Shown here: positions 174 through 9,605 of the stretch, piece after piece
How the letters are laid out: each line of letters begins with the position of its first letter
Numbering within the stretch: the stretch's first letter is position 1
Origin: Polyangiaceae bacterium
GTDB taxonomy: Bacteria > Myxococcota_A > Polyangia > Polyangiales > Polyangiaceae
NCBI GenBank assembly: GCA_050287085.1
Contig: JBNKBE010000001.1
Coordinates: 1 to 64,000 of the forward strand
Reading direction: 5' to 3'
DNA: 64,000 nt
Program-made: the position numbers and the translations under genes
The notes under the pieces: generated by a model
Seen by the model: only the letters and a program-made list of their open reading frames with translations
Told to the model about the DNA's origin: nothing
Databases searched by the model: none

Positions 174-1496
174 TCAGCCGGAGATCAATCCGGTCACGCT
201 GGCTGCCGCCGACGCTGAGCCTTGCAGCGACGTGGTGGCATCCCCGAGCACGGAGCCGACTTCACCCAGAGCCCCAAGGCCACACGTTGCGCCCGCGATG
301 ACCCCAAGGCTAGCATCGCCGTCTACGACCGCGCTCAGCGCGCCGTCAACAGCTCCCTTGGCGTCCGCGGTTAGATCAGCGCCTGCGCTGAGCACGAGCT
401 CGATCTTGCCCACCTTGGCAACCAATTTGGCGTAAGCATCTGCAAAAGCCTCGATTTTCGCTTCGAGCGCCAGGCGGGCTTCAGCATCGAGGTCAGCCTT
501 CAGCCCATAGTCCACCGTTAGCTTGGGCGGTGTGCACTCAGCGCTGAAAGAGGCCTCGGCCTTGGCCGACGCTTTGCATTCCGCCGATACCTCGGGCGGC
601 TCAAAGTCACCTTTGCACTCGCCTTCGCACTTGACGCTCGCGTTGGCCTTGGCTTCACACTTCAGCTTGCCTTGGCATTCTGCCCCACCGGGATCGTAGG
701 TGCATTCGCCTTTGCACATGCCTTGGCATTCAAGCCCTCCGCTCAGCTCACAGCTGCCTCGGCACTCGCCTTCACACTTGGCGCCGCCATTGAGCTTGCA
801 CGTGCCGCCGCCGCTGGCGCCGTCGCCGTTGGCGACGAACTCGCCATTGCAATCCGCCTCAGCCTCTACAACACACTCGCCGGTGCAGCTGCCTTCACAC
901 TTGGCGCCGGCTTCCAGCTCGCAAGAGCCCTCGCAGGTGCCACTGCAAGCAAACGAGGGCGCGGTACCCGTGCACTTGACCTCGCCGTCGCAGGATACCA
1001 TGGCGTCCGCCTCGGCCACGCACTCACCCTTGCACTCAACCGCAAGCTTTCCAGGATCGGCTTTTACATCGCACTTGGCCGCCGCCTGAATTGAAGCCTG
1101 CGCGTTGACCTCGCACTTGGGCTCTTCGTACTTGAGCGAAAGCTTGCCGTCGATCTGCGACTTGATGCTCGCGTCGAACTCAGCTTTGATCGCGGCTGAT
1201 AGCTCTGCCGGAGTAGCCCCAGCTTTTACCTCGGCGCCAATGCCACGCGCCATCTCCTTGAGTACGCCGCTGATGTCCGCTTCCAGAACTTGCGCCTGGG
1301 CGTTGAAGTTCACGACTGAGCGAAAGAAGGCGTCCGCCGCAACAATGCCGGACACGCTGCCGTTGGCCTCCAACACGCCCTTGCACTCAAGACCACACTG
1401 GTCCGCCAGGGCGCCAATTGGATTGTTATCGTCACCACAAGCTGCAAGGGCCGGCATAACTGCCAGAAATGCTAGCGAAGAAAGTAGTTTTCTCAT
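174..1496 (-). CDS. Cys-rich lipoprotein with mirror-symmetric Cys ladder (paralog A)
   Basis: ATG at 1496 preceded by GAGGAG RBS; signal peptide with lipobox LAAC; 30 Cys; paralog of 1523..2905. Confidence 0.9.
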   Translation of the reverse strand: MRKLLSSLAFLAVMPALAACGDDNNPIGALADQCGLECKGVLEANGSVSGIVAADAFFRSVVNFNAQAQVLEADISGVLKEMARGIGAEVKAGATPAELSAAIKAEFDASIKSQIDGKLSLKYEEPKCEVNAQASIQAAAKCDVKADPGKLAVECKGECVAEADAMVSCDGEVKCTGTAPSFACSGTCEGSCELEAGAKCEGSCTGECVVEAEADCNGEFVANGDGASGGGTCKLNGGAKCEGECRGSCELSGGLECQGMCKGECTYDPGGAECQGKLKCEAKANASVKCEGECKGDFEPPEVSAECKASAKAEASFSAECTPPKLTVDYGLKADLDAEARLALEAKIEAFADAYAKLVAKVGKIELVLSAGADLTADAKGAVDGALSAVVDGDASLGVIAGATCGLGALGEVGSVLGDATTSLQGSASAAASVTGLISG

Positions 1497-1522
1497 GTTG
1501 TATTTCTCCTCTTGCTTCCTGT

Positions 1523-2905
1523 TCACTTGCCAACCACGGCGGTGAGCTTGCCTGCCGTTTCGATACTACCCTTGACTTTGCCCAGCGCGGCGGTGGCTTT
1601 CTTGCCCGCTTCGGGCAGCTCGGCCAGCGCACACCCCAGCTTGAAACCGGCCTTGAGATCGGCGTTGGCTTTGAGCTCGGGCACCGCGCCCGTGACGGCC
1701 TCTACCGCCGCTTTGGGTAGGTCCGCGGCGGCAGTGGCGATGCCCTTGAGGTTGGCCACCTTGGCGACCAGCTCACCATAGGCACGAGCAAACGCGTCCA
1801 CCTTGGCGCCAAACTCAGCCTGGAAGTCCGCGTCGCCCATCAAGTCCGCCTTGAGCTCGTAGCTCACGTCCAGACGTGGAGGCGTACACTCCGCACTGAA
1901 CTCTGCTTCGGCCTTGGCCGTAGCTTCGCATTGTGCTGAGACCTCTGGGGGGGTCACTTCCCCCTTGCACTCGCCCTCACACTTGACGCTGGCATTGCCG
2001 GAGGCAGTGCAAGAAGCCTGGCCGTTGCACTCCGCCATGGGCGCCGTGTAGGTGCACTCACCCTTGCACTTCCCCTGGCATTCGAGCCCACCGGTCAACT
2101 CACAGCTGCCGGAGCAGGTGCCTTCGCACTTGGCCCCAGCGCGCACGCTGCACGTGCCGCCGCCGCTGGCCCCATCCTCGGTGCTGGCGTGAAACTCACC
2201 GTCGCATTCCGCTTCGGTCTCCACGGTGCAAGTGCCTTTGCACTCTCCTTCGCACTTGGCGCCCGCTTCCAGTTCGCAGCTACCCTCACAGGTGCCTTCG
2301 CAAGCGAAACTTGGAGCGGTGCCCGTGCACTTGAGCTCGCCTTCGCACGCCACCATGGCGTCCACGTCGGCTACACACTCCCCCTTGCACTCAACGCTGG
2401 CTTCCCCGCCCTTGACGCTAGCGTCACATTTGGCCGACGCCTCCACCGCCGCCTTGGCAGTGACGGAGCATTTGGGCTCCTCGTAGTCGATCTTGAGCCC
2501 ACCTTCGAGGTTGGCTGTGATGTCCGCCTCGAACTTCGCCTTGATGTTGTCGATGGTCGCGTCGACATTGGCGTCGACCTCTGCGCCCAGGATCCCGGCG
2601 ATTTGATCGACGCTGAGCTTGATGCTCGCGTCGAGCTCAGCGGCTTTGCTTTCCAAGGTGACCACCGCGGAGAAAAAGGCGTCGATACTCGCTTCCCCGG
2701 AAATCGAGACGTCACCGTTCGCCACCGTGCCGCAGGTGAAGCCACACTGCTCCAGCAGGTCCCCAAGCTGGGCCTTCTCGTCCGCGGATGGTAGCGACTG
2801 TCCGGCAGAGGCCGTCTGCGAAGACGCTGGGCTCTGCTCACTGCACCCCGTGGCTAGCACGAGGGCGGCAACCGAGGTCGCCATGCCTCCAAGTAGTTTT
2901 CTCAT
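1523..2905 (-). CDS. Cys-rich lipoprotein with mirror-symmetric Cys ladder (paralog B)
   Basis: AGGAG RBS; MRKLL signal with ATGC lipobox; CxxxCxxxC repeats; collinear with paralog A. Confidence 0.9.
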   Translation of the reverse strand: MRKLLGGMATSVAALVLATGCSEQSPASSQTASAGQSLPSADEKAQLGDLLEQCGFTCGTVANGDVSISGEASIDAFFSAVVTLESKAAELDASIKLSVDQIAGILGAEVDANVDATIDNIKAKFEADITANLEGGLKIDYEEPKCSVTAKAAVEASAKCDASVKGGEASVECKGECVADVDAMVACEGELKCTGTAPSFACEGTCEGSCELEAGAKCEGECKGTCTVETEAECDGEFHASTEDGASGGGTCSVRAGAKCEGTCSGSCELTGGLECQGKCKGECTYTAPMAECNGQASCTASGNASVKCEGECKGEVTPPEVSAQCEATAKAEAEFSAECTPPRLDVSYELKADLMGDADFQAEFGAKVDAFARAYGELVAKVANLKGIATAAADLPKAAVEAVTGAVPELKANADLKAGFKLGCALAELPEAGKKATAALGKVKGSIETAGKLTAVVGK

Positions 2906-3191
2906 CTGAAAAGCACTCCTTAATGATTGATTTGCCCTGCAGCCGATAGTCCAACGTTTCGAAGGCGATGCCCCCTCTTTCGCCGGCTCGCAAGGCTGCG
3001 CGAGTCTAGGTGTAGCGTTTGAGAATTGTCAGGGAAAAACTTTGTCGACGGTCGGGTTACAGCTCTGGCGCATGAGCCACTGCTTCGCAACATGCCCCGG
3101 TCCGCCCGGTGACGGCACAGCGGACGCAGCGCGGAGGTTGGTAAGCCCGGACGGAGACGAACTATGTATTGATGGGCCGGCCCTGCGTGGA

Positions 3192-3257
3192 TGCCTGGGA
3201 ACGTGTAGGTGCCTGTGAACGTGTAGGTGCCTGTGAACGTGTAGGTGCCTGGGAACG
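3192..3257. repeat. Intergenic 18-bp tandem repeat (TGCCTG[G/T]GAACGTGTAGG, ~3.6 copies)
   Basis: Read directly from sequence. Confidence 0.9.
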
Positions 3258-3446: not shown

Positions 3447-4772
3447 CTAGCGATATCGAGGCGTCAATTGCACCTCGGCCCCTTCCGGAATCGGCAAGTC
3501 GATCGCGATCTCCGAACGAGGACTGCTGAGCTCGACGTCCGAAACGCTGACATTGCTGTCACACACGAACCGGCAATTGTCGCACTCGGTGCACAGCCGA
3601 ACGGCCAACCCTGGTGAACAGGCCACCGCAACCCGGCGGGCACCGTCCCACGTCACCGGGAGCCACAGAACGGCCGCAGAGCTGGTCTCAACGGGGCGGG
3701 ACGTCGGAGCCAAAGCCAAGGTGAGCTGGCGGTCTACGTTCAACGCCTCGTTTCGATCTGCACAGATCTGCGAAGACGACAGGACCTGGGGCCTGGCGTC
3801 CGCGGTCGTGAAGTGCTGACCAGCCGGAAGCAGCTGAATCACCGACCCCAGCCGCCCGCCCTGCGGTGGAGGCGGTGCAGAGTCCAGGGTACAGCCACGC
3901 ACGGCATCGCTCCCATCGCGGGTGGCACGCCAGAACGTGGCCTCGTCGTCAGTCCGAACCCGAAAGGCCGCGCCATCACAGGTGTTCACCCGCTCAGAAG
4001 CACACTCCCAGATGTAGAGACAGGCGCTCTCAGGACGTCCGTCGGCCATGGCCTGCGACCAGATTTCTGCGAGCTCTTGTCCGAGCACCCGCGCCACGGC
4101 CTCTTCGACGGCCGCTACTTCATCTCTGGGTGTCAAGGTCCGATACAAGGACAAGAAGCGTGCAACGCCGTAACGGCGCACCACAAAAGCGACAAAGCGT
4201 GCCGCAGCCCGGTAGTAGAACTCCCACGTGGTGGCTCCCTCCGCATACCAACCGGCTGACGAGAAAAGCTGCTCGTAGCCAAGCCCGGAGCGGCCCGGAT
4301 CTCGGATGCCACAGGATAACGCCACCGCAATTCCCTCCTCGAGTGCGCGATGGCTATCCCCCAACTGCGCTAGAAACGCATGCGTCAGCTCGTGACGGTT
4401 GAGCCATTGCCGCGAGAAGACCCCGCGTCCGCGCTGAAAACACGCGGACGCATCGTTGCTACAACCGCTCCATTTGCGAAAGGACGCCCTGTTAGTGAAC
4501 TTGGTGTAAACGGTGTGGGGCGCCGGGAGCGAAAAAAAGTCGGACAAGGCGAGGTAATACGCTTCGAGGGGCTCCGTCGGCGTCGCACACGCGGCCAACT
4601 CCTCAGCGCTCACCCGCAGCTCAAAATGCGGCGACGCGACACTCTCCGTCGGCTGAACCAGAGTGGATTCCGAATTGCAGCCGCTTGTGGCACAAGCCGA
4701 CGCGGCGCAGGCCGCGAGCGACGTGCATACGACTCGACAGGCGCGTTGCACGACGCGCCGCGGGCCCGACAT
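3447..4772 (-). CDS. Putative exported zinc metallopeptidase (gluzincin/peptidase MA-like), probable lipoprotein
   Basis: HELTH followed by LEEGIA third-ligand motif; N-terminal hydrophobic/Cys segment (TSGC); ATG overlaps lon stop (TAATG). Confidence 0.65.
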   Translation of the reverse strand: MSGPRRVVQRACRVVCTSLAACAASACATSGCNSESTLVQPTESVASPHFELRVSAEELAACATPTEPLEAYYLALSDFFSLPAPHTVYTKFTNRASFRKWSGCSNDASACFQRGRGVFSRQWLNRHELTHAFLAQLGDSHRALEEGIAVALSCGIRDPGRSGLGYEQLFSSAGWYAEGATTWEFYYRAAARFVAFVVRRYGVARFLSLYRTLTPRDEVAAVEEAVARVLGQELAEIWSQAMADGRPESACLYIWECASERVNTCDGAAFRVRTDDEATFWRATRDGSDAVRGCTLDSAPPPPQGGRLGSVIQLLPAGQHFTTADARPQVLSSSQICADRNEALNVDRQLTLALAPTSRPVETSSAAVLWLPVTWDGARRVAVACSPGLAVRLCTECDNCRFVCDSNVSVSDVELSSPRSEIAIDLPIPEGAEVQLTPRYR

Positions 4773-7240
4773 TAGCCCGCTGCCCGCGCGCGAATGAGAT
4801 GATCGCGATGGGGCCCCCGCGCCGGCAAGCACAGCTCCAAGACCTCCTCGAAACGGGACACGAAATGGGCCCGCATCCCGCGACGAATGGCCAACGGCAA
4901 GCGCTCGTACTCCGCGGTATTTCCTGCCGGCAGGATCACGTTGCGAACCCCAGCACGCTTCGCGGCTATCAGCTTTTCCTTGATCCCGCCCACCGGCATC
5001 ACGAGGCCACTCAGATTGAGCTCCCCGGTCATGGCAAAGGCCGGCCGCGGGGCAACGCCGTACATCAAGCTAAACAGAGCGGTTGCCATGGTTATGCCCG
5101 CAGAGGGTCCGTCCTTGGGAACCGCACCCGCCGGGACGTGAAGGTGCACCTGACGGGTTTCCAGAAACTGTTGCCCAGCGCCCCCTTGGCACAATGCGCG
5201 TACATAGGTGTAAGCAATCTCGCTCGACTCGATCATGACGCTTCCCAGCTGCCCGGTTTGTTTGAAACTCGGTGTCTGAGCAGGCACTGCTTGGGCTTCA
5301 ACGAATAGCGTATCCCCCCCCATGCTCGTCCACGCAAGGCCGGTAACGACCCCGATGCGCGGGGCCATCAACATATCCTCGTTGGTGAACACACGCGGAC
5401 CGAGCAGGCCTTCAACATCCCCGACATCGATGCGCAGCGGCTTCTTCCGACGCTGCACGATCTTGACCGCGCATTTTCGCACGATTTTCTTGATCTGATT
5501 CTCGAGGCTGCGCAGCCCCGCTTCTCGCGCGTAGCCGTCCACCAGCTCCCTCAGCGCGGCGCGGGAAATGGACAACTGGGAGCGCTTGAGGTTGAGCCGC
5601 TTGAGCGTCTTGGGCACCAGGTAGCGGCGGGCGATCTCCAACTTTTCCTCGAGGATATACCCGCTGAGTGAGATGACTTCCATGCGATCGAGCAGCGCCG
5701 GCGGCACCGTGTCCAGCTGATTGGCAGTGCATACGAATAGCACTTTGGACAGATCGAAACGCACGTCCAAATAGTGATCGAGAAACTCGTGGTTCTGCTC
5801 CGGGTCCAGCACCTCCAACAGAGCAGACGCCGGATCCCCCTGGAAGCTCGCCCCGATCTTGTCGATTTCGTCCAACATGATGACCGGGTTCTGCGTGCCC
5901 GTCGCGCGCAGAGCCTGAAGAAACTTGCCGGGGAGCGCACCGATATAGGTTCGGCGATGCCCCTTTATCTCGGCTTCGTCACGCATGCCGCCTAGAGAGA
6001 AGCGAAAGAACTCACGCCCGAGACAGTTGGCGATCGAACGCCCCACCGACGTCTTCCCCACCCCCGGTGGCCCTACGAGGCAGATGATCGAACCCCCAAA
6101 ATCTCCGCGGAGCAAACCTTCCGCCACAAACTCCACGATCCGTTCTTTGACGTCGGTCAACCCAAAGTGATCGCGATCCAAACTTGCGTTGACTTCCTTG
6201 AGGTTTACGCGACGTTCGGAACATTGACCCCACGGCAAGATGGTAAGCCAGTCGAGATAGGTACGCGTGAGGTTGTACTCGGTGCTGCTCGGTTCAATCG
6301 TACGCAGCTTGTTGAGTTCGTCCTGAATGCGGGTTTCCGCCTCCTTGGTCAAGGAACGACTCTCGAGTCGGGCCACGAACTCCTCAACCTCGGCTTCTTT
6401 GCCCTCTTTTTCGATGCCGAGTTCATGTTTGATCGCCTTGAGCTGCTCTCGCAGGAAGAACTCGCGCTGCTGATCGTTGATACGATCCTCGATCCGTTCA
6501 CGGATCTTGGTCTGGAGTCGTGAGATCTCCAGCTCGTCCTTGAGCAGCCCGAGCACTTTCTCCAGACGTCGTCGCACGTCCAACGTCTCCAGCACTTCTT
6601 GCAGGAGGGGTCCGGCCGCGCTCGTCAGAAACGCCGCCATGTCGGCGAGTGGCCCTGGCTCTTCGAGATTGCCCTCGCTCAGCAACAAGCTCAACTGCTC
6701 CTTGTACAGCGGGTTGAGGGCAACCAGATCTTTGATCAGGTTGATGACAGCCAAGGTATAGGCCTTGAGCTCGTCCCCGGGGGCGGCCTTCTCCTCGAGG
6801 TACTCAACCTCACACACCATATGCGGCGCGCGTTTGACCACGCGCACGATCCGCATTCGGTCGAGCGCGCTGAGCACTGCCGTCATCTCGTCGTCTTCGG
6901 ACATCGACAGATTGGTGATTTGCGCCACGACCCCCACCTCGTAGGTGTCGCCGTCGACCAGACGTGCCGCGTGCGGCAGCCCGTCGTATTCGTATTCGCC
7001 TTCCGGTTCCCGCTCGAGGACCAAACCCACCAACCCGTGACCACGCTGCTTGGCATGCCGCATCAGGGCCTGAAGCTCGGGCGTCTCGAGCTCGACGGGG
7101 ATCATCACTTTGGGGAAGACGGGTCGAACCGGAAGCGCCAGGATCGGGAGACGGTCCGGGTAGACCTCGCGGGCGACGATGATGCTGGTACTCGCCGCGC
7201 CATCGCGGACATCGTCGTCATCGGAATAGGGCCGTGCCAT
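4772..7240 (-). CDS. lon: ATP-dependent protease La (Lon)
   Basis: LON N-domain, Walker A GPPGVGKTS, RRTYIGALPG, LDEIDK, catalytic PKDGPSAG and KEK. Confidence 0.97.
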   Translation of the reverse strand: MARPYSDDDDVRDGAASTSIIVAREVYPDRLPILALPVRPVFPKVMIPVELETPELQALMRHAKQRGHGLVGLVLEREPEGEYEYDGLPHAARLVDGDTYEVGVVAQITNLSMSEDDEMTAVLSALDRMRIVRVVKRAPHMVCEVEYLEEKAAPGDELKAYTLAVINLIKDLVALNPLYKEQLSLLLSEGNLEEPGPLADMAAFLTSAAGPLLQEVLETLDVRRRLEKVLGLLKDELEISRLQTKIRERIEDRINDQQREFFLREQLKAIKHELGIEKEGKEAEVEEFVARLESRSLTKEAETRIQDELNKLRTIEPSSTEYNLTRTYLDWLTILPWGQCSERRVNLKEVNASLDRDHFGLTDVKERIVEFVAEGLLRGDFGGSIICLVGPPGVGKTSVGRSIANCLGREFFRFSLGGMRDEAEIKGHRRTYIGALPGKFLQALRATGTQNPVIMLDEIDKIGASFQGDPASALLEVLDPEQNHEFLDHYLDVRFDLSKVLFVCTANQLDTVPPALLDRMEVISLSGYILEEKLEIARRYLVPKTLKRLNLKRSQLSISRAALRELVDGYAREAGLRSLENQIKKIVRKCAVKIVQRRKKPLRIDVGDVEGLLGPRVFTNEDMLMAPRIGVVTGLAWTSMGGDTLFVEAQAVPAQTPSFKQTGQLGSVMIESSEIAYTYVRALCQGGAGQQFLETRQVHLHVPAGAVPKDGPSAGITMATALFSLMYGVAPRPAFAMTGELNLSGLVMPVGGIKEKLIAAKRAGVRNVILPAGNTAEYERLPLAIRRGMRAHFVSRFEEVLELCLPARGPHRDHLIRARAAG

Positions 7241-7333: not shown

Positions 7334-7924
7334 TCAATCCGGCGAAACGCGGCTGCCGGGCCGCGAAGAGAGCGGAGGAAACTCGGCGCACAACGCCTCG
7401 GCGTTCTCCCGCTGGGCCGAAAACTCTCCCAATTTCTCAGACTGGTCGTCGAAACGCGCGGCCGCGGCGTCCAGCGCTTCGCTTTCCACCGCTGAGAGCT
7501 TTGCGGTCAAAGGAAAGAGCTGGTCCTCCTCAGTGCGCATGTGCGCGCTCATGGAAGCGATGAATTCCCGCAAGTTGGCGAGCAGGTGCGAACGTTCAGC
7601 ACCGTCGAGGCTGCTTTCGGAGCGCATGGCTTCCTGGCTCAGAACCCGCATCAGATAGCGCTCGGTTCGATGCTCGCGCCGAGCGTCCGCGAGCGGCCCC
7701 TCGGGCCAAGCCTCACCATGTGAGGCCAGCGCCGGCAAGAGCACGGTCTCTTCCTTCTCGGCGTGATGATTGTCAGCGAAGTTGACAAAGAACTCGCTGA
7801 AACGCTGCAGCGTCGCAGCCTCGAGGGGAGCGCCGTGTTCGACTCCATGAATGAAGCGCTCGAGCGCCCAGAGCACGCGAAACATGAGGTGATGCTCTTT
7901 GTATAGTTGGCGTGCCGCGTTCAT
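7334..7924 (-). CDS. Hemerythrin (HHE) domain protein
   Basis: EH, HHAEKEE..LLP, EH and HMRTEEDQLFP motifs. Confidence 0.85.
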   Translation of the reverse strand: MNAARQLYKEHHLMFRVLWALERFIHGVEHGAPLEAATLQRFSEFFVNFADNHHAEKEETVLLPALASHGEAWPEGPLADARREHRTERYLMRVLSQEAMRSESSLDGAERSHLLANLREFIASMSAHMRTEEDQLFPLTAKLSAVESEALDAAAARFDDQSEKLGEFSAQRENAEALCAEFPPLSSRPGSRVSPD

Positions 7925-8297
7925 GCTCTTCTCCCGGTTGAACTACAAATTGGAAACTGCGCCTGATGATACAAGCCCGAGGCTTTCAAGAGGAACGCAA
8001 ACACTGCAGAAAGCAAGACGCGCGCCAGGGTGAAGGAAGCGGTAGGACTCTATCATTGCGCAACAGTTGCGTAGTGACCATTCGAACCGGCGGCCCTTGC
8101 GCCCACAGCAACAGCTGGCGCGGAAGGTTTCACCCATTATCTCCGCAGAAGCTGCACAGCGGAGCAGGAACCGGAAACACTGCCGCAACCTTGTTCCGGC
8201 ACAACCTCCGGGGTTAGATCCCTGTTTGGTCCCCAACGCCGGGCGAGTCCCACAACTTGCCTGGCTCATCCTTGATTCCGGAGAACCCGTAAACGCC

Positions 8298-9605
8298 ATG
8301 AGAAAATTCCTTATCCCCGTTCTTGCGTCCACCACAACCGTACTGCTGAGCAGCCCCAGCTTTGCCCAGGTGAAGCTTGAAGCCAGTGCCTCGGCGGAGG
8401 GGGAGGCGAGCCCCAAGGCCGATGCTGAAGCCACGACGAACGCCGAGACAGATGCCGTGGTGGAAGAAAGCGTCACCATGGAAGAAAGTGCGCCAGCGCC
8501 GACCGATGACGCCGCGGGCGAGAGTCAGGGCCTGGACTTCTCCGCCTTCGTAGACGGCTCGCTGGTCCTACAAACCGCGCGGATGGGAACGGGAGTGCCC
8601 CCCCATCGGGCCTACGCAGGGGCCCTGGTCACCGGAGCTGGGACAACCAGTGCCAACGGCTTTTCCCTCAATTGGGTGGGGCTGAACGTCGGCTATGATG
8701 CAGGCGCTATCGGCGCCACGATCAGCCTGCGCGCCGGGACGGCCATGCCCGTCTACAATGCTAGCTCGGGCCATTCGCTCTACGGCATCGACAATATTAC
8801 CCAGGGCTATCTGACCTATCGCCCCACCCACAAGCTAGAGCTGGACTTCGGGCAGTTTGGTACGATCTACGGAGCCGAGGTCGCTGAGAGCTGGATGAAC
8901 CTCAACTACACCCGCGGCGGCCTGTACTTCGCCATGCAGCCGTTCTGGCACACTGGGCTGCGCGCCAGCTACGCCGCCTCCGACTCCATCACCGTCAAAG
9001 GGTTGCTCGTCAATGGTGTCAACTCGATCAGCGAAGCCGAACCGGACGGCGGGGGCGCGGTGGACCCGGTTTTCTACCCCACTATCGGTGCCCAGGTCGC
9101 TTACGCTTCCGACAAGTTGGACATCTTCGGCGGCGGGCTCTACGGCACCGAGACGGACGCTGATTCCTTCAATGTATTCCTGGATCTGGTGGCCGTACTC
9201 AAGCTCGATCCGCTCACCGTCATCCTCAACGCCGACTACAACGTGGACCAGCACGACGGAGTCGACAGCACGTCCTTCTACGGCGTGAGTCTGGCCGCGG
9301 GTTATACGCTGAGTCCTATGCTGGGGCTGGCAGGTCGAATCGAGCACCTTGTGGACGCTGACAACACCCTCTACGGCGTCCTTGATCCCAATGCCATCGT
9401 CCAGCCGACCTTGCTCGCCGAGTCCATCAGCGCCACCACGCTGACGGCCACCGTCGACGTCAAACCCCTGGAAAACGACAACTTCGTGCTCCGCTGGGAC
9501 AACCGCTATGAGATCGGCAGCCACGATATCTACGCTGACACCAAAGGTGCGCCCACCGACAGCTGGTTTGCCACGGTGATCGGCTTGGTCGTGCAGGGTG
9601 GCTGA
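8298..9605 (+). CDS. Outer-membrane beta-barrel putative porin (DUF1597-like)
   Basis: Sec signal ending SFA-Q; DFGQFGTIYGAEV, NLNYTRG, PFWHTGLR motifs; amphipathic C-terminal strand. Confidence 0.75.
   Translation: MRKFLIPVLASTTTVLLSSPSFAQVKLEASASAEGEASPKADAEATTNAETDAVVEESVTMEESAPAPTDDAAGESQGLDFSAFVDGSLVLQTARMGTGVPPHRAYAGALVTGAGTTSANGFSLNWVGLNVGYDAGAIGATISLRAGTAMPVYNASSGHSLYGIDNITQGYLTYRPTHKLELDFGQFGTIYGAEVAESWMNLNYTRGGLYFAMQPFWHTGLRASYAASDSITVKGLLVNGVNSISEAEPDGGGAVDPVFYPTIGAQVAYASDKLDIFGGGLYGTETDADSFNVFLDLVAVLKLDPLTVILNADYNVDQHDGVDSTSFYGVSLAAGYTLSPMLGLAGRIEHLVDADNTLYGVLDPNAIVQPTLLAESISATTLTATVDVKPLENDNFVLRWDNRYEIGSHDIYADTKGAPTDSWFATVIGLVVQGG

Follow-up and report, generated by a model that had tools for sequence, protein, structure and literature searches.

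The window analysed here, a 64,000-nucleotide stretch from a Polyangiaceae bacterium (assembly GCA_050287085.1, contig JBNKBE010000001.1, positions 1 to 64,000 of the forward strand), encodes two tandem lipoproteins, A and B, each of which carries 26 cysteines spaced as a mirror image about a central loop. Comparison with homologs and structure prediction indicate that each of these cores is very probably an antiparallel hairpin zipped by nested disulfides, and complex modelling suggests that proteins of this type probably dimerise. The best explanation as a whole, towards which we lean, is that A and B form a disulfide-stitched twin stalk that stands on the outer membrane and serves structure or adhesion at the cell surface.

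The mirrored cysteine ladders of A and B

Both genes lie on the reverse strand, and the ATG of gene B falls 26 nt past the stop codon of gene A, preceded by a GAGGAG ribosome site. The features of the pair are as follows.

1523..2905, reverse strand: gene A, a 460-residue lipoprotein of the mirror-Cys family, identified from its open reading frame (ORF) and from matches to the family hidden Markov models
174..1496, reverse strand: gene B, a 440-residue lipoprotein, counted from the ATG at 1496
1886..2470, reverse strand: 26-Cys mirror ladder of A, Cys146 to Cys340
534..1115, reverse strand: 26-Cys mirror ladder of B, Cys128 to Cys321, in which the positions of each mirror pair sum to 449
2153..2203, reverse strand: tip loop of A, 17 residues, where both arms lack the innermost Cys pair seen in close homologs
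801..848, reverse strand: tip loop of B, 16 residues, with Phe220 and Gly229 at the sites of a Cys pair found in many homologs
2843..2905, reverse strand: signal peptide and lipobox of A, read from the sequence, with Cys21 and Ser at +2
1437..1496, reverse strand: signal peptide and lipobox of B, likewise read, with Cys20 and Gly at +2
2732..2746, reverse strand: CxxxC of A (Cys54, Cys58); Cys54 belongs to the predicted dimer interface, from whose listed residues Cys58 is absent
1383..1397, reverse strand: CxxxC of B (Cys34, Cys38); Cys34 belongs to the predicted dimer interface, from whose listed residues Cys38 is absent
1631..1633, reverse strand: Cys425 of A, in the last helix, the putative partner of Cys58 in closing the base
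282..284, reverse strand: Cys405 of B, in the last helix, the putative partner of Cys38, invariant as Cys in the B-family alignment

Each protein contains 30 cysteines, 26 of which belong to the ladder core. In both, the gaps between these 26 read 13-12-3-9-5-8-3-3-7-3-3-7-[17 in A, 16 in B]-7-3-3-7-3-3-8-5-9-3-12-13, exactly as the original prediction had claimed and at the coordinates it had given, and alignment of A with B confirmed its statement that the tip loop (16 versus 17 residues) holds the sole indel within the core. The probability of a palindrome with the same gaps in random order is 3.6e-10, and among the 652 ORFs of the genome with at least 12 Cys the other mirrors of six or more gaps were periodic or near-periodic repeats only. 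The further claim that nothing except the spacing is palindromic needs a small correction, since the residues between the cysteines mirror one another somewhat above chance: 15/76 and 18/76 non-Cys mirror pairs are identical in the two proteins, against 9.0 ± 2.7 and 8.1 ± 2.6 in shuffles, with Gly-Gly accounting for five of the identical pairs in A and B alike. Two other origins of the pattern were rejected. The DNA holds seven short pairs of inverted repeats, none of them running from arm to arm, so that a DNA palindrome does not underlie the mirror, and duplication during assembly is ruled out by the protein identity of A and B (53%) and by the occurrence of tandem pairs in 29/71 loci.

Evidence for a disulfide-zipped hairpin

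The original prediction had proposed an antiparallel hairpin with nested cysteines, a base of N- and C-terminal helices and a lipobox anchor; this is supported by symmetric indels among homologs and by AlphaFold2, the pairing itself following by inference. Of 374 sequences, 314 had complete cores (60 partial ones were dropped), and these were reduced to 227 at 80% identity. The Cys count is even in 223 of the 227 cores and ranges from 22 to 44, with arms of 77-133 residues. Perfect mirrors make up 155 of the cores and fall into 41 distinct patterns, which argues that symmetric change was not one single event; the others differ at the tip only (13), in one or two mirrored gaps (40) or in at least three (15), or have an odd count (4). 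Where a gap departs from its modal length, the same new value appears on both arms far more often than in shuffles for gaps 4, 5, 6 and 9, the both-arm agreement being 20/39, 25/35, 8/27, 38/51 and 3/19 (the last for gap 2) against shuffle means of 0.8, 2.2, 0.3, 6.1 and 0.3, counts that are inflated by kinship among the sequences. A and B themselves lack the innermost Cys pair of close homologs on both arms together, and in B the residues at these sites, Phe220 and Gly229, are the top covarying pair, the remainder of the plain mutual information being mostly noise. The expectation that ladders would lengthen by symmetric insertions thus held for most gaps. Members of the Nannocystales type (L016, L021, L022, L036, L047 and L075) have an asymmetric tip with an additional local Cys pair (gaps 2-4-10), possibly a specialised tip.

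For disulfides to cross between strands on one face of a beta-ribbon, the spacings must be even. Among the perfect mirrors this is true of 3280/3920 Cys spacings, and proline occurs in 599/640 odd spacings as against 23/1216 long even ones; the even spacings fit disulfides across one face of the ribbon, with the odd spacings as proline kinks. The centre of the CxxxC unit is Gly in 96% of 2859 units, and polar and acidic residues line the opposite face. In two subfamilies the non-Cys residues of the two arms covary more strongly at even offsets no more than ~8-10 residues from the mirror diagonal (z reaching 6.3 and 6.0); farther out the signal is flat, with no second register. The Cys count equals 2 modulo 4 in 138/227 cores, which argues against four-Cys metal sites. 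Together the even counts, the joint change of both arms and the even spacings favour nested cross-strand disulfides over metal sites, and we hold the nested hairpin to be highly probable.

The AlphaFold2 model of B, built on 114 sequences, reached a pLDDT of 86 and a pTM of 0.78. It consists of base helices (residues 52-85, 96-114, 338-392 and 397-439), two neck helices (132-142 and 305-317) and beta strands between residues 153 and 299; we estimate that a fully extended arm would measure ~20 nm as an upper bound, which kinks or coiling would shorten. A sequence search of the PDB gave no matches for B at E<=1 and four weak, unrelated ones for the profile of the second subfamily. With the whole model, Foldseek against the PDB returned nothing at E<=0.001, a wide fold search (VIA) gave generic helix bundles with a best Z of 11.6, and a library of viral structures contained no fold match; the ladder model, which is of middling confidence, reached a best Z of 2.8 in the fold search and had no Foldseek match. 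The absence of a fold match does not by itself prove a new fold; the ladder protein is new at the level of architecture.

Antiparallel strands with nested cross-strand disulfides at even spacings, as proposed for A and B, are found in the cystine-ladder beta-hairpin peptides theta-defensins, protegrin, tachyplesin and gomesin, which are short, cationic and free and have 2-3 rungs, whereas the mirror-Cys family has 11-22 rungs over ~170-270 residues, a helical base, a lipid anchor and a predicted dimer. The ladders of B and A, by contrast with these short cationic peptides, span 194-195 residues and carry net charges of -18 and -21, respectively. The DnaJ zinc finger, a cytoplasmic zinc-binding hairpin, likewise has nested, mirror-related Cys motifs; there the motif is CxxCxGxG, whereas here it is CxGxC, in exported proteins whose cysteines are added one per arm. 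Packed N- and C-terminal helices with a projecting beta insert are shared with flagellin/FlgL and with BabA of H. pylori in topology only: the corresponding Foldseek rows are non-significant (E 0.02-0.5, TM 0.12-0.18, rmsd 19-25 Å; flagellin/FlgL at E 0.02 and TM 0.18), and flagellin has neither a Cys ladder nor a Sec lipoprotein signal, A and B in turn being without a flagellin Pfam match. By analogy, the ladder core may work like a cystine-ladder hairpin scaled up several-fold, within a layout like that of flagellin, helices with an insert.

TraA and the MYXO-CTERM proteins are reported as Cys-rich surface proteins of myxobacteria (PMC11980579; PMC3325183, PMC12045341), the MYXO-CTERM tail comprising a C-terminal Cys motif, a hydrophobic helix and an Arg-rich tail (PMC11980579). 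They resemble A and B as Cys-rich envelope proteins of the same phylum; they differ in having a C-terminal sorting tag and tandem local Cys repeats, where A and B have an N-terminal lipobox and one global mirror. Neither A nor B has a MYXO-CTERM-like tail or a corresponding Pfam or NCBIfam match. Two database labels touch the ladder itself. The tSAM_targ_Cxxx repeat (PF27846/TIGR04114) and bactofilin (PF04519) have in common with it CxxxCxxxC words and an alternation of small and polar residues with Gly; on homologs these labels are short local ladder matches, in 14-32% of the members of ESM Atlas clusters, and they describe neither the helical base nor the mirror. TIGR04114 had no match in A or B at E<=1, and two of five homologs scanned scored 17.3 and 13.4 bits against a cut-off of 20 bits. 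PF04519 scored 31.7 bits on the ladder of B and 26.3 on that of A (cut-off 27.9), one of three matched homologs exceeding the cut-off. Bactofilins are cytoplasmic and have no export signal, whereas A and B have a signal peptide and lipobox. The bactofilin fold is a parallel right-handed beta-helix; covariation in the ladder is antiparallel about the mirror, and no bactofilin was among the fold rows listed, though a fold of this kind could have been missed there. Among the memberships tested, that of the lipoproteins is the only one that A and B clearly show.

Predicted dimer, export and distribution of the family

Prediction of an A+B complex gave an ipSAE of 0.77, compared with 0.00 for the best of three controls; the mark applied is reached by 116/157 solved complexes and 2/215 mismatched pairs, counts that are only a rough guide with our own alignments. 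The runs share at least 93% of contacts with a partner pLDDT of at least 81, and the interface is pseudo-two-fold: 78 of its 87 residues in one protein have their equivalent in the other, and conservation there is a little above that of the remainder (0.58 versus 0.53). The interface is made up of a conserved motif (B 43-52), helix 1 against the neck helix of the partner, and patches on the ladder every 14-16 residues; searches of the PDB turned up no complex like it. Three cysteines (two N-terminal, none in between, one C-terminal) lie outside the ladder and lipobox in 146/206 main-subfamily members with a usable anchor, which leaves one spare. The columns of A Cys58 and Cys425 keep Cys in 138/139 and 139/139 aligned sequences. 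As A54/B34 are in the interface and A58/B38 and A425/B405 are not listed in it, we infer an intra-chain bond in the base and an inter-chain bond between the spare cysteines. Three natural fusions of two units (P0260, P0387 and P0388; 829-832 residues, 49-56% identical to one another) fit a dimeric unit. Second-subfamily members have an additional Cys pair between the two N-terminal base helices.

The original prediction had also read the two genes as a two-component assembly. A and B are indeed predicted to bind one another, pseudo-symmetrically, but the notion of an obligate system is not supported. A single copy is present in 42/71 loci (a maximum, given that some contigs are short) and two to four in the other 29, and in a tree that took in tandem copies only, A and B of the window group as sisters (support 0.968), many pairs go back to local duplication, and a few lineages keep a first-gene and a second-gene clade; single copies and repeated local duplication make an obligate two-component system unlikely. 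Among 38 adjacent pairs 20 share an arm pattern, and neighbouring paralogs differ in arm length in 18. The genome of A and B contains no third family gene detectable with either subfamily profile.

A and B both have a lipoprotein N-terminus, with a basic start, a hydrophobic stretch and the lipobox Cys; 132/160 homologs that start with Met are lipobox-like, and the lipobox column of A holds Cys in 126/139 aligned homologs. Lys at +2 is reported to mark inner-membrane lipoproteins in M. xanthus (PMC3222651). It is absent from A and B and present in 2/132 lipobox-like homologs, which would place the proteins in the outer membrane if the M. xanthus rule carries over.

The gene neighbourhoods share no single conserved operon. 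In counts that stand without a background rate and in which related loci are not independent, a VKOR-DsbA fusion lies beside a family gene in 9/103 loci (two probably from one genome) of Polyangiaceae and Nannocystaceae, and thioredoxin-like lipoprotein genes lie nearby in 8 and 11 loci. Both subfamilies have a gene order with thioredoxin-like lipoproteins, another Cys-rich lipoprotein, Mrp and an S1 protein. One Cys-rich lipoprotein, L063:766-2115 (+), is encoded directly upstream of a family gene and has a Myxo_Cys_RPT match under the cut-off; genes related to it occur in 12 loci.

Homologs of B numbered 659 among 7999 scored candidates (447 representatives at 50% clustering), and the profile of the second subfamily found 1766 among 8000; the two profiles align end to end with probability 100. 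The named loci come from Polyangiaceae, Nannocystaceae, Enhygromyxa, Plesiocystis, Sandaracinaceae and related bins, with Enhygromyxa salina, Nannocystis exedens and Plesiocystis pacifica each encoding homologs. Within the phylum 51/401 genomes have matches, and 49 of the 50 other positives fall within Polyangia: 24/28 genomes of the bacterium's own family, 17 elsewhere in the order and 8 elsewhere in the class (some partial). In the one positive genome outside Polyangia the match spans just the CxGxC stretch, and none of 18 sampled genomes of one genus of the same order has a family match. Homologs are named 'hypothetical', 'keratin associated' or 'modification target Cys-rich repeat' in databases, and the ESM Atlas returned only Myxococcota clusters of hypothetical proteins. 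No publication describing the mirror-Cys family was found in a search of a library with few subscription papers, so that a proteomics table could still list a member. In line with the original prediction, which knew of no characterised family with this architecture, the family is large and unnamed, with no fold match and no description in the literature searched.

The same genome encodes a second protein with near-mirror cysteines, of 364 residues and 35 Cys (G000:C5:175137-176231 (-), equivalent to L104:3138-4232 (-)). It has an 8-residue loop, lacks the central Gly, ends in a Cys, hydrophobic and Arg-rich tail resembling MYXO-CTERM, and matched neither the mirror-Cys family profiles nor NCBIfam; judged by its sequence it is possibly a second, independent family of mirror-Cys surface proteins.

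Two further features precede gene A.

3003..3032, reverse strand: weak match to a sigma-70-like promoter upstream of A (1 found, against 0.3 ± 0.6 in shuffles)
3447..4832, reverse strand: upstream gene for a 461-residue HExxH protein with a weak Peptidase_MA_2 match (E 0.31)

The HExxH protein is putatively secreted and single-copy in the genome, and its gene lies upstream of family genes in the six closest loci (L001, L002, L003, L005, L012 and L019). Non-coding DNA upstream of gene A (3196-3255) contains four tandem 15-nt units, and the contig ends 173 nt downstream of gene B. A BBP2/OmpL-like porin (8067-9605, +) and a hemerythrin-domain protein (7334-7924, -), encoded near a Lon protease gene, appear ordinary. 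Codon usage places A at the 94.5th and B at the 75.7th percentile among 3962 crude genes, in a ranking whose reference of 15 genes includes wrongly matched ones and whose top is held by mobile genes, so that it is no measure of abundance. The ORFs at its head, at G000:C24:52000-95000, C6:267081 and C13:9430, are tail-sheath-, tail-tube- and capsid-like by eye and may belong to a prophage or contractile system.

A proposed surface stalk and its rivals

In the mechanism that we propose, each gene would yield an outer-membrane lipoprotein that folds as a single nested hairpin, its N- and C-terminal thirds packed into a four-helix base, closed in B by Cys38-Cys405, above which a neck of two short helices would lead into a strongly twisted, two-stranded antiparallel beta-ribbon. 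This ribbon would be kinked at two proline segments and held by 13 rungs, Cys i bonding Cys 27-i, with Gly filling the spaces between the rungs on their own face and acidic or polar side chains covering the other. Two subunits may lie side by side on a two-fold axis, touching at a conserved GNASISG-type motif, at helix 1, at the neck and once per turn of the ribbon, with the spare cysteines (A54/B34) forming a covalent link; such a dimer could plausibly be A-A, B-B or A-B. Export by Sec and Lol, with lipidation, would be followed by oxidation by VKOR-DsbA-type catalysts, giving a rigid, protease- and force-resistant twin stalk, the length of which would be set by matched indels in its two arms. 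At the cell surface it could act as a structural spacer or as an adhesive, perhaps cation-bridged, element. The absence of a catalytic motif, the scarcity of aromatics, the acidic face and the variation of tips and lengths are best matched by a mechanical role; that this role is structural or adhesive and at the surface is a guess, to which we give even chances.

Several observations weigh against this picture. The ladder modelled alone is less confident (pLDDT 67, pTM 0.46) and its strands are imperfectly mirror-matched, so that the ladder may be coiled or folded instead of straight. Insertions are not symmetric throughout: gap 2 alters mostly on one arm only, outer mirrored gaps are unequal in 55/227 cores, so that about a quarter carry bulges. 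Residues at exact mirror positions are not opposite in charge more often than expected (ratio 0.93, compared with 1.67 at offset -2), and both the Cys i-Cys 27-i pairing and the bond between subunits are deduced, not directly seen. Close cousins also pass the complex test, which makes hetero- and homodimers indistinguishable; the spare Cys is missing in 4/139 homologs, and one subfamily has a single N-terminal Cys. The lipobox Cys is missing in 13/139 homologs, the +2 rule comes from another class, the stalk could stand on either side of the outer membrane, and the one VKOR gene of the bacterium's own genome is on another contig.

The main rival keeps the fold and the dimer and turns them towards the periplasm, as a strut or ruler from the outer membrane to the peptidoglycan or inner membrane that would give the Polyangia envelope its shape. 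Outer-membrane lipoproteins mostly face the periplasm, and the near-core distribution (24/28 own-family genomes, plus the order), the old gene order conserved in both subfamilies and an L,D-transpeptidase-domain gene near six loci would all suit such a strut; arms of 77-133 residues that differ between adjacent paralogs in 18/38 pairs are, however, odd for a fixed ruler, Pfam and NCBIfam scans found no peptidoglycan-binding domain, and the family is absent from 18/18 sampled genomes of one genus of the same order. We regard this placement as unlikely, if a serious contender. A polymer, in which ribbons coil as a beta-solenoid or dimers form filaments or a coat in the manner of a bactofilin outside the cytoplasm, is improbable. 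It would account for the bactofilin match (B over the cut-off, A under it), for interface patches that recur every 14-16 residues and for the second subfamily's C-terminal tail of alternating Val and Ser-Ala, but covariation has no second register at offsets 14-16, a comparison of low power, the periodic contact equally fits one turn of a twisted ribbon, and the predicted interface closes on its two-fold axis. This tail, a long run in members such as L085:3911-5200, is also an observation in its own right.

Two readings are very improbable. The pore-forming assembly raised in the original prediction, two-component or otherwise membrane-penetrating, could draw on the tandem genes, on amphipathic alternation in neck and ladder, and on one helical-bundle match to a ClyA pore chain (Z 9.3, rmsd 4.6, 154 residues aligned); spectrin repeats and CorA match equally well, though, all in the generic-bundle range, and single copies in 42/71 loci, pairs that arose repeatedly and an acidic ladder (-21 in A and -18 in B, family median -19) with a median aromatic fraction of 1.5% leave it without support. 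A protein that binds or stores metal, like metallothionein or the DnaJ zinc finger, or one that is a radical-SAM target, is scarcely to be expected either. Many cysteines and acidic residues, the fact that nested metal sites would mirror too, precomputed PF27846 labels on many homologs and a gene for the Fe-S carrier Mrp/NUBPL near 15/103 loci speak for it; against it stand an exported lipoprotein with oxidase neighbours, cysteines gained or lost one per arm, counts that are not multiples of 4 in 142/227 cores, and CxxC gaps in only 14/5977. A radical-SAM gene nearby is presumably to be expected for TIGR04114/PF27846, going by the family name; a narrow scan for CxxxCxxC-type motifs in the ORFs of the 103 loci found none near the family, and TIGR04114 itself is unmatched by A and B and below cut-off in homologs.

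The disulfide-stitched surface stalk would be a novelty of protein architecture and shows no new biological process. Known cystine ladders have a few rungs, whereas those of the mirror-Cys family change length by matched indels, which constitute a natural experiment in the co-evolution of two arms and may offer a scaffold for stiff linkers of defined length. The ordered oxidation of 14 nested bonds would be a sharp test case for VKOR-DsbA folding, an oxidase gene often adjoining. A bolder reading, which we think doubtful, is that covalent twin needles of a new fold, mixed as homo- and heterodimers of paralogs and tuned in length by matched insertions, form a surface coat or an adhesion and recognition code that defines the Polyangia; under it, different proteins might, just as doubtfully, fill the role in other myxobacteria. 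In Polyangia, whose envelopes are little studied, near-confinement to the class and near-core status within it make the mirror-Cys family a candidate class-specific component of the cell envelope.

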